Shown one piece after another: positions 1 to 15,060 of a stretch of 64,000 nucleotides of DNA (position 1 is its first letter; every line of letters begins with the position of its first letter). Below the pieces are notes generated by a model that saw only the letters and a program-made list of their open reading frames with translations, made no database searches and was not told the DNA's origin. Source of the stretch: Candidatus Daviesbacteria bacterium (GTDB lineage Bacteria; Patescibacteriota; Microgenomatia; Daviesbacterales; UBA10151); assembly GCA_016198275.1 (NCBI GenBank), contig JACQIX010000038.1, positions 2,340 through 66,339 of the forward strand. The letters run 5' to 3'. The position numbers and the translations under genes are program-made.

Positions 1-2520
1 TTCTTTGGTGGCAGCTTCCTCCAGATCTTTTGGCTCAATGGCTTTTTTACCCTCACGCGCAGCCAAAATAGCTGCCTCATTTAACATATTGGCCAAATCT
101 GCCCCGGAAAAACCAACAGTACGTCTTGCCAGTTTTTCCACACTAACATCCTCTGTAAAAGGTTTTCCTTTCATATGAAGCTGGATAATGGCTTTCCTTT
201 CCTCAAGGTCCGGTAAAGTTAACACCACTCTCCTGTCAAACCTGCCCGGTCTGATTAAAGCTGCATCCAAAAGGTCAGGCCTGTTGGATGCCCCGATCAC
301 GATTACCCTTTCATTAGGAGTAAATCCGTCCATTTCCACCAAAATTTGATTTAAGGTCTGCTCCCTTTCATCATGCCCCCCTGAAATTCCCATCCCCCGC
401 TGACGCCCAATGGATTCAATCTCATCAATAAAAATAATGGAGGGTGAATTCTTTTTAGCCTGTAAAAACATGTCTCTCACTCTCGAAGCACCCACACCTA
501 CGAGCATTTCCATAAACTCGCTGCCGGCAATTGAATAAAATGGTACTCCGGCTTCGCCTGCTATGGCCCGGGAAATTAAGGTATTATGATTTATAAATCC
601 ATTACCTAAAAAGCTGTGAGTTTGGGGGACTGTAAAATCATAAACCCTAGCCTGACTTTGCGTTTTCTCAACTACCCTGGAGAAGAATAGCTTAACTTCT
701 AGCAAATTACGTAAATATTCTAAATGCGGAATTTCAGATTGAAGAGAGTTAGCATATTCCACATAATCGTTTAGTGTTTCCCTCGAAATCCTCCCTCTTC
801 TACGAACTTTATCAATAGTTTTAGATAAATTCTCGTTACTTAATTTTTTAACAGAAACTTCTCTCCAAGATTCTTCCACTATCTTAGCTATTGAAGGAAT
901 CACATCAATATTGGTATTGACTCTCCCCATTTTTTGAACATGCGAATGAAGCAATTGCTGCTTTCTAGATAAACGAAAACCCACACTACTACTGAAGCTG
1001 ATCAGCGACGAACCAGTAATGTTTATTCTGTAAACTGAACGATAATAGCCATTTTCTTTTCTGCCTTTAACATTTAAACTGGCGACGATTCCCAAGTTCA
1101 AAAGCATCATGTGTACCTGTCTGGCCATACGCTCGCTTACTGTGCAGTATTCAAATGCTGCCCTTTTTCTTTCTATAGAACCATCTGTATCAAAAAGTCC
1201 CTGCAGAAAAGCAACTTGGATAATTTCAGAAGCCTGTAGAATTGTTGGTGGTATAACTTTATCATATGATAATAAGTAAGACATACCTAGTTGATACAAT
1301 TGCCTTTTAAAATCCCAATTTGAAATAGTAAACGATTGACCATTAGTACTGGTAGAAATTGCACCTTTTGGGTAATGAGTTTTAAGATAGTTCTTATAAA
1401 ATTCGGTGATTTCTGGTTCGATACTTGTTAGTCCTACTCTTGATGCATGACTTAGATTACCGTCACCTGTTAAAAGACCCAAAAGATATGCTGTATCTTG
1501 ATCTACCAAATCAAGGTTTCCAAAAATTCTTCTTCCAAATTGAATTGCTACATTGTCACCTTCTTGTAAGTATTGAATATTTCTAAAACGTAGCTTACCA
1601 TCGTTATCCATTACTACAACTGGATGCTCAGGAGTTCCCTCAAGAGTAAATCCTTGAGCCAATCTTATCTTAATAGTTTTTTGTTCCCCCAAATTGAACC
1701 AATGAGAAGCAAAGTTTTCGCTGGAAATTACATCATCTGTATTAAAACCTGGAAGTCTTGCTCCGTAGACTTGATGGGATCTTGGATCAACATAAAAATA
1801 ACGCGGAATTTCTCTTATTTCCATTAACCCTTTATTTGTCCAGATAATAGTATCCCCTGTAACACATTTACCTGTTCCGGGCGGTCCTAGCAGAAGTACC
1901 CCTTTAGGCACTCTGGCTCCCAAAGCCCTGAATTTTTCCGGAGTTTTTAAAAACTCAACTATCTCTGACAACTCTCTTTTAGCTTCCTCTGCCCCGGCCA
2001 CATCGGAAAATTTAATTTGGGGAGAATCTTTGGTGAAAAGCCTGGCTCGTGATTGGGCAAAAGAAAAAATTCCCTGAGCGCCTTCGCGGGCATTTCTAAA
2101 AAGAAAAAACATCAAACCTACCAAAACCAGTATTGGTAAAACCGCCGAGATCACCCCCACCCAAGCTTGTTGGATTGACAAATCCTTTACTTCAATGGTG
2201 ACTCCTTTTGGATCAACTCCTGAACTTTCCAAAATTTTATAAATTGATTCCCCTGCTTCCTTGCGGGAAATCAGTTTTTGATCAGAACCTTTAATCTCTG
2301 CTGTGACTTTATCGCCTTCAAGAGAAATCTTTTGCACTTTTTCATCTTTGATTTGGTTAATAATTTGGGAGATTGGCACTTCTCCGCCTGGCGCAGGACT
2401 GCCTGAAACCTGGTAGAAAAAAATCAGTGCCGCCAAAGCTATTAAAAGATAAATCAGGGCTCCTTTAACAGTGGCCCAAACCTTTTTATTTAAATTAATC
2501 CGTCTTTTGCCGTTGGCCAT
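1..2520 (-). CDS. ftsH: ATP-dependent zinc metalloprotease FtsH (N-terminal TM and AAA module; C-terminus lies beyond the window start), interrupted by an intein
   Basis: The minus-strand frame is open from ATG at 2520 to the window edge, so it has no stop in the window and is absent from the ORF track. It has two TM segments and Walker A GPPGTGK. After removing 583..1866 it continues [23 protein letters not shown], then Walker B IIFIDEIDS and [18 protein letters not shown]. Confidence 0.9.
583..1866 (-). mobile_element. Intein (428 codons) with a LAGLIDADG homing-endonuclease domain, inserted between K and T of the FtsH Walker A GKT
   Basis: It starts with Cys (CVTGDTIIW, block A) and has block B GTPEHPV. 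It carries two LAGLIDADG motifs ([11 protein letters not shown] and [11 protein letters not shown]) and ends [21 protein letters not shown], followed by Thr +1. The length is 1284 nt, so it is in frame, and excision restores GPPGTGKT. Confidence 0.85.
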
Positions 2521-2539: not shown

Positions 2540-3535
2540 TTATAAGAGATAATCTATTTTCATAACCTTTTTAACTTCTGCTAAAGTTTTTTGGGCTTCT
2601 GCTTTTGCTTTTTCAGTCCCCTCATTAAGAATCTTCTTCACCAAATTTGGCTGTTTTTCATATTCAACTCTTTTTTTTCTGATTGGATCTAAGAAATTAT
2701 TTAAAACTTTGACCAGGTACTTTTTTACCTCAATATCTCCTATTTGGCCATTTCTGTATTCTTCTTTAAACTTTGCTATTTGGGCTTTATCCTCTTCTGT
2801 ACCAAAAACATCTAAGTAGATAAATACCGGATTGCCTTCCACTTCTCCTGGATCAGTGGCATGAATTCTCTTTGGGTCCGTATACATACCCATCACCTTT
2901 TTTTCTACTTCCAAAGCAGAATCACTCAGAAAAATTGCATTCCCCAAAGATTTACCCATCTTGGATTGCCCATTTGTGCCTGGCAAAGTTGGTACCTCAC
3001 CTATTAAAGGTTCAGGTATGGGAAAAACCTGCCCATAAAGGTTATTAAACTTAATAGCAATATCCCTGGCAAATTCCACATGAGCTTTTTGATCTTTTCC
3101 CACCGGTACAAGATTGGCTTTTGGCAACAAAATATCAGCTGCCATAAGAATTGGGTATTGGAACAGAGCAAAGGTGTCTTGTTCCCCTGAATCAAGCTTT
3201 TCTTTTAGAGCTGGCTGGCGCTCCAGCACCGCTCTGGAAGTGAGAGTACCCAGAAAATATGCTAATTCCAAAACTTCCGGAACTTTAGATTGTAAAACAA
3301 AGGTCACCTTCTTATGATCAAGTCCAACTGATAAATACCCGAGCATCAGACCCCTGATATTTTTTTGTAAATCAGCTGTTTTATCAAAATGAGTAGTTAA
3401 AGCATGTAAGTCTGCAATTAAAATATAAGTGTCATACTCATATTGCAGTTTAACCCTATTTTTAAGTGATCCAATATAGTTTCCCAGATGGAAACTATCT
3501 AAAGTAGGCCTGTCACCTGTCAGAATCCGTTTCAT
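2540..3535 (-). CDS. trpS: Tryptophanyl-tRNA synthetase
   Basis: MKRILTGDRPT..FHLGNYIGS is a HIGH-type motif. GKDQKAHVEF and KMGKS (KMSKS motif) are also present. Homology begins at Met50 of the tracked ORF 2540..3682, so the shorter start at 3535 is preferred. Confidence 0.85.
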   Translation of the reverse strand: MKRILTGDRPTLDSFHLGNYIGSLKNRVKLQYEYDTYILIADLHALTTHFDKTADLQKNIRGLMLGYLSVGLDHKKVTFVLQSKVPEVLELAYFLGTLTSRAVLERQPALKEKLDSGEQDTFALFQYPILMAADILLPKANLVPVGKDQKAHVEFARDIAIKFNNLYGQVFPIPEPLIGEVPTLPGTNGQSKMGKSLGNAIFLSDSALEVEKKVMGMYTDPKRIHATDPGEVEGNPVFIYLDVFGTEEDKAQIAKFKEEYRNGQIGDIEVKKYLVKVLNNFLDPIRKKRVEYEKQPNLVKKILNEGTEKAKAEAQKTLAEVKKVMKIDYLL

Positions 3536-14750: not shown

Positions 14751-14788
14751 ATTTTTGAGTATAACAGACTAGGAGGAAAAGATTTGTG

Positions 14789-15060
14789 TTGCGGGGGTGG
14801 GAATCGAACCCACTACCTCAAGATTATGCTCCGTTTTGCATTACTGCAAGGGTAGGACTATATCATCATCCTGTTCCGTACGGTACAGGAGTCCGGCGTG
14901 TAGTCTCTACGGGATCCTGAGTATTAATCGAAGGACTTCCCTCGGTATTACCTAGGTATTTAAACATTTAGGTTTCACCGATATAGCCAGATTCTCACAA
15001 AAAATTACTTTCTTGCGGGCCCAAACTGAGCCTTGTGTGCAGCCTTTACACTTCCCCGCG
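14789..15060 (-). tRNA. tRNA(CAU) gene (Met/fMet/Ile2 type) interrupted by a group I intron
   Basis: The 5' exon is 15060..15029 and the 3' exon is 14828..14789. Joined, they give a 72-nt cloverleaf with anticodon loop CUCAUAA, T arm GUGGG-UUCGAUU-CCCAC, and acceptor CGCGGGG/CCCCGCA with a C1xA72 mismatch. Confidence 0.8.
14829..15028 (-). ncRNA. Group I intron (IC3-like, about 200 nt), no ORF
   Basis: It is preceded by U and ends in G (..AAAACGGAG). It contains GGUGAAACCUAAAU and GUAGAGACUACACG, which closely match the core strings of the Azoarcus and Anabaena tRNA introns as I recall them. Exon GGCU can pair with intron GGCC to form P1 with a U.G pair. Confidence 0.75.

Follow-up and report, generated by a model that had tools for sequence, protein, structure and literature searches.

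A predicted class 1 intein with a nested LAGLIDADG endonuclease at the Walker A motif of FtsH in Candidatus Daviesbacteria

The insert in the Walker A motif of FtsH

The ftsH gene of Candidatus Daviesbacteria bacterium (GenBank assembly GCA_016198275.1), as present in a stretch of 64,000 nucleotides (nt) of contig JACQIX010000038.1 (positions 2,340 to 66,339; hereafter the window), carries an in-frame insert between the Lys and the Thr of the Walker A motif (GPPGTGK/T, the slash marking the insertion point). Judging from its sequence, we have little doubt that this element belongs to the canonical class 1 inteins and harbours a nested LAGLIDADG endonuclease of the two-motif type, and sequence and predicted structure together make it very probable that it splices. 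The freed intein of 428 amino acids (aa), with a mass of ~49 kDa, would, on balance, be an active site-specific endonuclease.

The ftsH open reading frame (ORF) lies on the minus strand, starts with an ATG at 2520 and runs through the window start, giving 840 codons without a stop in translation; the window start cuts the gene within the AAA lid domain, and the M41 peptidase domain falls outside. The insert occupies 583..1866 (1284 nt, 428 codons), keeps the frame, begins with CVTGDTIIW and is followed by Thr+1, the first residue of the C-extein (580..582). An initial annotation of this DNA had proposed an intein with just these borders, which proved exact to the base, and the motifs that it had quoted (Cys1, TPEH, two LAGLIDADG motifs, a terminal His-Asn, and Thr+1) were all found in their places. 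The gene and the predicted parts of the intein are as follows.

1..582, minus strand: FtsH C-extein, 194 codons to the window start, with the remainder of AAA and with the AAA lid (Pfam AAA, AAA_lid_3)
583..1866, minus strand: predicted intein of 428 codons, made up of a class 1 splicing domain and, nested within it, a LAGLIDADG homing endonuclease (profiles, AlphaFold model, Foldseek)
583..588, minus strand: His427-Asn428
583..681, minus strand: C-terminal splicing lobe, residues 396-428, with block F (Asp410, His417) and block G (NGFINHN) (TIGR01443)
682..966, minus strand: helical module of ~95 residues (301-395), modelled as five helices, that separates the endonuclease core from block F
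967..1530, minus strand: LAGLIDADG endonuclease core, ~residues 113-300, borders approximate (Pfam; two alpha-beta-beta-alpha-beta-beta-alpha halves in the model)
1177..1206, minus strand: LAGLIDADG motif 2, residues 221-230, including Asp226 and Asp228
1258..1260, minus strand: conserved Lys203
1456..1485, minus strand: LAGLIDADG motif 1, residues 128-137, including Asp135
1531..1866, minus strand: N-terminal splicing (Hint) lobe, residues 1-112, with Cys1 (block A, 1864..1866) and block B Thr78-Pro-Glu-His81 (1624..1635) (TIGR01445; all-beta in the model)
1867..2520, minus strand: FtsH N-extein, 218 codons, with the N-terminal transmembrane part, FtsH_ext and the start of AAA, ending in GPPGTGK (1867..1887) (translation; Pfam FtsH_ext 3.9e-9, AAA)

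Excision of the insert restores an ordinary FtsH, as the initial annotation had claimed. The N-extein is 83% identical to an intein-free Daviesbacteria FtsH and the C-extein 90-93% identical to intein-free orthologs, and the joined exteins match the NCBIfam family FtsH_fam (TIGR01241) at 9e-157. Pfam AAA is covered from profile position 1 to 129 after excision, but only from 12 to 129 in the unspliced precursor. The spliced sequence aligns with solved p97 residue by residue, and without a gap, across GPPGTGKTLISRA, and with the FtsH structure 1iy2 in one continuous match (query residues 1-256, 3e-105). The host domains found were FtsH_ext, AAA and AAA_lid_3 (Pfam), in addition to the N-terminal membrane region.

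The best 120 matches of the spliced query in a database of 5.8 billion proteins were FtsH proteins of 590-642 aa, mostly from Candidatus Daviesbacteria where a source was named, which align contiguously across the junction with 76-89% identity and 92-100% query coverage (100% for most) and contain no intein domain. Peptidase_M41 is present in all of these orthologs, as well as in the full-length intein-bearing FtsH P0164. In one intein-free Daviesbacteria ftsH (locus L007), the insertion site reads GGCCCTGCTGGAACAGGAAAA directly followed by ACGCTCATTTCGAGAGCT.

Splicing and endonuclease residues

Well beyond what chance would give, the insert matched Pfam Intein_splicing (7.9e-14), LAGLIDADG_3 (2.4e-19) and Hom_end (1.5e-5), as well as NCBIfam intein_Nterm (TIGR01445; 4.9e-10, residues 1-85) and intein_Cterm (TIGR01443; 3.5e-7). 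Its best whole-length NCBIfam match was NF038098, GyrA_w_intein (1.8e-29, residues 1-428), with a score far below the family cut-off because the extein is unrelated. The splicing residues are all present (Cys1, Thr78-x-x-His81, Asp410, His417, His427-Asn428, and Thr+1), as are those of the endonuclease (Asp135 in motif 1, Lys203, and Asp226/Asp228 in motif 2). Cys1, block B, blocks F and G, Thr+1, a host that is contiguous after removal, and intein-free orthologs are the features of a class 1 intein. The two motifs each end in a conserved acidic residue (Asp135 and Asp228), in keeping with a monomeric two-motif LAGLIDADG enzyme, and the junctions GPPGTGK/C...HN/T are those of a classic P-loop insertion.

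An AlphaFold model of the intein, built on 36 homologs, had a mean predicted local distance difference test score (pLDDT) of 92.5 and a predicted template modeling score (pTM) of 0.92. In it, residues 1-112 and 396-428 form a beta-rich Hint domain, residues ~113-300 a LAGLIDADG core of two alpha/beta lobes, and residues 301-395 a module of five helices. The predicted splicing domain has the Hint fold and matches solved inteins and mini-inteins. The top Foldseek matches in the PDB were endonuclease-containing inteins, namely PI-PfuI (2.5e-26), TliVMA (template modeling (TM) score 0.71), PI-PkoII and PI-SceI, while free LAGLIDADG enzymes such as I-DmoI, and mini-inteins, ranked lower. The predicted model, with the pseudo-dimeric fold of such enzymes, superposes on I-DmoI and I-Tsp061I with TM scores, normalised to the target, of 0.64-0.71. 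Both the profile matches and the predicted fold, which resembles PI-PfuI and TliVMA, thus bear out the identification of the insert as an intein in the initial annotation. The helical module matched no Pfam family; it is conserved among FtsH inteins, with invariant N317-T318-N319-x-D321 and W334, and may be an accessory DNA-binding region.

Splicing would proceed by the established class 1 pathway, from which the following steps are taken, the residues themselves being observed. The precursor, whose P-loop is split by 428 residues, would not bind ATP and would be inactive because the P-loop is interrupted. Cys1 would form a thioester with Lys218, aided by Thr78 and His81, and Thr+1 would then attack this thioester, aided by Asp410. 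Cyclisation of Asn428, aided by His427 and His417, would release the intein, and an O-to-N shift would leave a native Lys-Thr bond, restoring Walker A and yielding an active FtsH of ~614 aa. Thr+1 would accordingly have a double role, as the Walker A Thr and as a splicing nucleophile. The initial annotation had argued that splicing must work since FtsH is essential; this argument is reasonable, on the assumption of a single ftsH copy, which is checkable only for the 64 kb of the window, where neither a second ftsH nor a second intein was found.

The position of the insert, which guarantees an inactive precursor, also invites the idea of a domesticated post-translational switch, in which redox state, metal, temperature or substrate decides whether splicing takes place and thereby controls the activation of FtsH. 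Conditional splicing of this kind has been suggested for the inteins of RadA and DnaB and for others in P-loops, and P-loop inteins as sensors are discussed by Novikova et al. (PMC4760082; see also PMC4513877 and PMC6195587). We regard this as improbable for the FtsH intein: no sequence feature points to a switch, most close relatives do without the intein, and selfish mobility, not domestication, predicts an endonuclease that is conserved at full size. A redox switch in particular was rejected, since the one further cysteine, Cys240, is replaced by Thr or Ala in the other FtsH alleles and no conserved disulfide trap is therefore apparent.

Alleles at the same site

An initial protein search recovered the same insert in FtsH fragments of Daviesbacteria, Parcubacteria and Beckwithbacteria at 36-78% identity. 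When the GTDB species representatives, one genome for each species, were scanned, 42 loci were found to carry a homolog, all at the same FtsH site, G-K/C...[NS]HN/T-[LM]-x-[AS]-[RK]-A, and none with a stop codon. The hosts are mostly Patescibacteria, joined by Acidobacteriota, one metagenome-assembled genome (MAG) of Chloroflexia and a high-GC group labelled Planctomycetia; named groups include Daviesbacteria RIFCSPLOWO2_01_FULL_39_23 (locus L013), Gottesmanbacteria, Amesbacteria, Levybacteria, Parcubacteria and Pyrinomonadaceae. Two complete chromosomes of Pyrinomonadaceae (Acidobacteriota; OZ244585.1, 4.27 Mb, locus L033, and OZ243957.1, 4.53 Mb, locus L035) have the same FtsH P-loop intein, 48-49% identical to that of the window, and hence the allele is not restricted to the candidate phyla with small genomes. 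The best match to the intein of the window is only 78% identical, indicating that the window carries a distinct allele.

Cys1, Thr78, His81, His417 and His427 are kept in all 41 homologs compared, Asp410 and Asn428 in 40 of them (the exceptions come from one frameshifted MAG), and Thr+1 in 40 of 40 loci with a recovered C-terminal junction. The endonuclease residues are equally constant (Asp135 in 40/41, Lys203 and Asp228 in 41/41), which agrees with the remark in the initial annotation that the endonuclease motifs look intact. Allele lengths vary only from 426 to 435 aa, and an alignment of five full-length alleles at 46-78% identity has 1-2 indel columns. The sole exception to the kept splicing residues among the 42 loci is L044, a long-read MAG with a 1-nt frameshift near the intein end.

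The insert might not work at all. It might be an assembly chimera, a non-splicing insertion, or part of a disrupted ftsH pseudogene, and homologous loci do show defects: a -1 frameshift at a run of A in three assemblies, a frameshift in the C-extein of L005, and that of L044. These are, however, single-base events in low-coverage or long-read MAGs; L006 has the run intact, and the frame is open in L013, an allele with identical junction residues. In the window, the frame is open through the N-extein, the intein and the C-extein, the splicing residues are all intact, and the architecture recurs in 42 independent genomes without stops. A homologous insertion that does not splice, which the initial annotation had named as grounds for doubt if present in close orthologs, was not seen, the 120 closest having no insertion and the 42 carriers keeping the splicing residues, L044 apart. 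We therefore give a non-working element almost no credence.

Distribution and mobility

The two intein-bearing Daviesbacteria FtsH proteins each have an intein-free protein as nearest relative, with extein identities of 89% (window) and 92% (the other carrier). The smallest neighbour-joining cluster that contains both comprises 111 of 119 tips, i.e., they are not sister taxa. The two Daviesbacteria alleles are 78% identical in the intein versus 84% in the extein, and at a broad scale the inteins cluster by host clade, with groups of Microgenomates, Parcubacteria and Acidobacteriota.

Selection on the intein was estimated against a composite Daviesbacteria allele, built from locus L011 with one A restored. 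The nonsynonymous divergence (dN) between the window and this composite is 0.138 overall and 0.156 in the endonuclease part, with a synonymous divergence (dS) of ~2 or higher and a ratio (omega) of ~0.07 or lower; since dS is saturated or undefined for every pair, the usable statement is that dN is far below dS. The patchy distribution, the near-absence of indels and this low dN fit an element that is still in its homing cycle, as far as sequences can tell. In such a cycle, at the Walker-A-coding sequence, the released intein would cleave ftsH alleles that lack the insert, and repair from an intein-bearing copy would insert the intein. The suggestion of the initial annotation that the element is still mobile thus gains indirect support from the conserved catalytic residues, the scarcity of indels, the dN of 0.156 against saturated dS in the endonuclease part, and the non-sister Daviesbacteria carriers.

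The intein could instead be competent in splicing but immobile, with an endonuclease that no longer cleaves, and persist by vertical descent, because inexact excision from the P-loop would, in an essential gene, be lethal. Such an element would account for the clustering by host clade and for intein and extein divergence being alike within Daviesbacteria, and two further observations are in line with it: relatives of the intein were not found in viral contigs in our scan, and the saturated dS holds no sign of recent transfer. Its base composition (GC 0.355; GC at third codon positions (GC3) 0.257) is likewise inside the range of the 37 long ORFs of the window (GC3 0.308 +/- 0.048). An inactive endonuclease is, however, expected to decay. 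Yet 40-41 of 41 alleles, with identities as low as 36%, retain Asp135, Lys203 and Asp228, all lengths fall within 426-435 aa, and the endonuclease part has a dN far below its dS. Moreover, with intein-free closest relatives of both Daviesbacteria carriers, pure vertical descent needs many precise losses. An immobile intein is therefore possible but, in our opinion, rather unlikely.

Several points nevertheless weigh against the reading of a splicing and mobile intein. Because dS is saturated, omega is a rough upper bound, and nothing indicates recent transfer. The conservation of the endonuclease could partly reflect other constraints, e.g., folding needed for splicing, and no phage vector was evident from the scan of viral contigs. 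Long vertical residence with many losses could also be the source of the patchiness, given the similar divergence of intein and extein and the clustering by host clade. A second, intein-free ftsH could lie elsewhere in the genome, of which only 64 kb is visible. Finally, both splicing and DNA cleavage are here deduced from sequence and predicted structure.

Two related comparisons may be recorded. A foreign origin by composition was considered and rejected on the GC and GC3 values given above; the exteins are high outliers among the ORFs of the window (GC3 0.37-0.43), and the intein is lower than its exteins. To the eye, the two Daviesbacteria alleles resemble each other in their 30-nt flanks no more than intein-free alleles do; synonymous sites, which would have to reveal co-conversion tracts next to the intein, are saturated.

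Relation to known inteins

The Lys/Thr position of Walker A has been called a "classic" point of intein entry into P-loops for the mycobacteriophage TerL1-a intein (Kelley et al., PMC5050341), in accord with the preference for P-loops cited in the initial annotation. Inteins cluster in the P-loops of ATPases, with sites such as archaeal MCM-a, bacterial DnaB-b and RFC-S, for which both homing-cycle and sensor hypotheses have been put forward (Novikova et al., PMC4760082). The FtsH intein shares with the classic P-loop inteins the identical micro-position, the dual role of the +1 Thr, the class 1 residues and the nested LAGLIDADG endonuclease. It differs in its host, a membrane AAA+ protease, which is outside the top hosts tabulated by Novikova et al. 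(PMC4760082). Archaeal LonB inteins (Table 2 of PMC4760082) are alike in that they reside in an ATP-dependent AAA+ protease, but they are archaeal and their host belongs to another protease family. P-loop inteins of hosts other than FtsH are only ~27-40% identical to that of the window, whereas the allelic FtsH inteins, which share gene, site, length (426-435 aa) and catalytic residues, are 36-78% identical.

PI-PfuI (1dq3) was the best sequence match in the PDB (4.6e-7), consistent with its rank in the structural search (2.5e-26). Both PI-PfuI and TliVMA (7qss) combine a Hint domain, a two-lobed LAGLIDADG core and extra helical elements, as in our model; they are, however, only 19-21% identical to the FtsH intein and come from archaeal thermophiles, where they occupy other insertion sites in ribonucleotide reductase and V-ATPase, respectively. 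The mycobacterial GyrA inteins (NF038098) likewise have Cys1 and His-Asn/Thr+1, but they reside in gyrase A and at a site other than a P-loop.

An exhaustive HMMER search of 1.84 billion representative sequences gave 9866 relatives of the intein, 381 of them at E <= 1e-30. Among the 62 best relatives of full intein length, 56 sit directly after a Walker A "GK", which makes the element typical of a P-loop intein group. They are carried by FtsH, other AAA+ proteins, and proteins whose flanks resemble UvrD/Rep, RecD, TerL, MutS and PhoH. We tentatively suggest, while holding it to be the less probable case, that these belong to one lineage of inteins specialised in Walker A Lys/Thr or Lys/Ser sites, which recognises Walker-A-coding DNA loosely and occasionally jumps between non-orthologous ATPase genes and between phyla (Patescibacteria, Acidobacteriota, Chloroflexia). 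If this were true, inteins would owe their P-loop bias mainly to target-site homology and descent, not to independent selection for a regulatory role.

In the literature searched, we found no published description of an FtsH intein or of inteins in Patescibacteria (the candidate phyla radiation); FtsH is absent from the main text of PMC4760082, where an entry in a supplementary table is possible. A paper on phage MIJ3 was considered as a report of an FtsH intein and set aside, since FtsH and the intein are separate features there. What is new is the host gene and the lineage only; the intein is otherwise an ordinary example of a well-known kind, and the current understanding of inteins is unchanged by it. 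FtsH would join the essential P-loop ATPases that depend on protein splicing, here in a host lineage with a tiny genome. The 42 alleles in at least three phyla, together with hundreds of related P-loop inteins, form a data set for the study of movement between unrelated ATPases via Walker A. The intein, mesophilic and of the Cys1/Thr+1 type, and its new LAGLIDADG specificity might also serve as reagents.

Intein-bearing ftsH in public genomes

Intein-bearing ftsH is systematically mis-annotated in public MAGs. The records name the product "AAA family ATPase", "hypothetical protein" or plain "FtsH", and it is often split; recognising the intein restores a core housekeeping gene in the annotation of candidate phyla. 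In L005 (456..3661, GCA_018816485.1), the gene is called as two because of a frameshift in the C-extein, and in L006 (2926..6088, GCA_000995285.1), it is called as two because of a run of N in the intein. In three public assemblies of a Daviesbacteria FtsH intein, the intein region (L010, 4627..4807; L011 and L012, both 3300..3480) has a run of four A in place of the five in L006 (~4637), giving a -1 frameshift and a stop within the intein. Such a stop would truncate FtsH; the coverage of L010 is ~2x, and the shorter run may be an assembly error or a population variant.

Eight third-party-annotated MAGs among the carriers (L017, L018, L020, L021, L022, L040, L050 and L051) are titled "Gammaproteobacteria", "Pseudomonadales" or "Clostridia". 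These titles disagree with their FtsH N-exteins, for which the nearest matches (59-78%) come from Amesbacteria, Levybacteria, Daviesbacteria or Blastocatellia, and the taxonomic labels are probably wrong.

Two further FtsH proteins from the exhaustive HMMER search, P0166 (1494 aa) and P0172 (1499 aa), have two inteins each, seen as two Intein_splicing stretches. The second intein lies within the AAA domain, before profile position 43 in one and after position 108 in the other; these differing places imply at least three intein insertion sites in FtsH in public data.

Neighbouring genes and a second self-splicing element

The gene for tryptophanyl-tRNA synthetase (TrpRS) lies directly upstream of ftsH (2540..3535, minus strand), and this order of TrpRS and then FtsH agrees with that on Daviesbacteria contigs. 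For the source metagenome, the neighbouring gene is present in runs SRR12113383, SRR12113422, SRR12113424 and SRR12113431. The synthetase has FHLGNY in place of the usual HIGH signature of class I synthetases, and its longest ORF starts with a TTG that precedes the likely ATG by 49 codons.

A tRNA(CAU) gene at 14780..15059 (minus strand) is interrupted in the anticodon loop, between U33 and C34, by an ORF-less group I intron of 200 nt (14829..15028, minus strand; Rfam RF00028, 80.6 bits, E 6.9e-19), a second self-splicing element in the same 64-kb window as the FtsH intein. The unspliced gene was missed by ARAGORN, which called tRNA-Met(cat) once the 200 nt were removed. The ARAGORN drawing has an unpaired C/A atop the acceptor stem, and the interrupted gene might encode the initiator tRNA.

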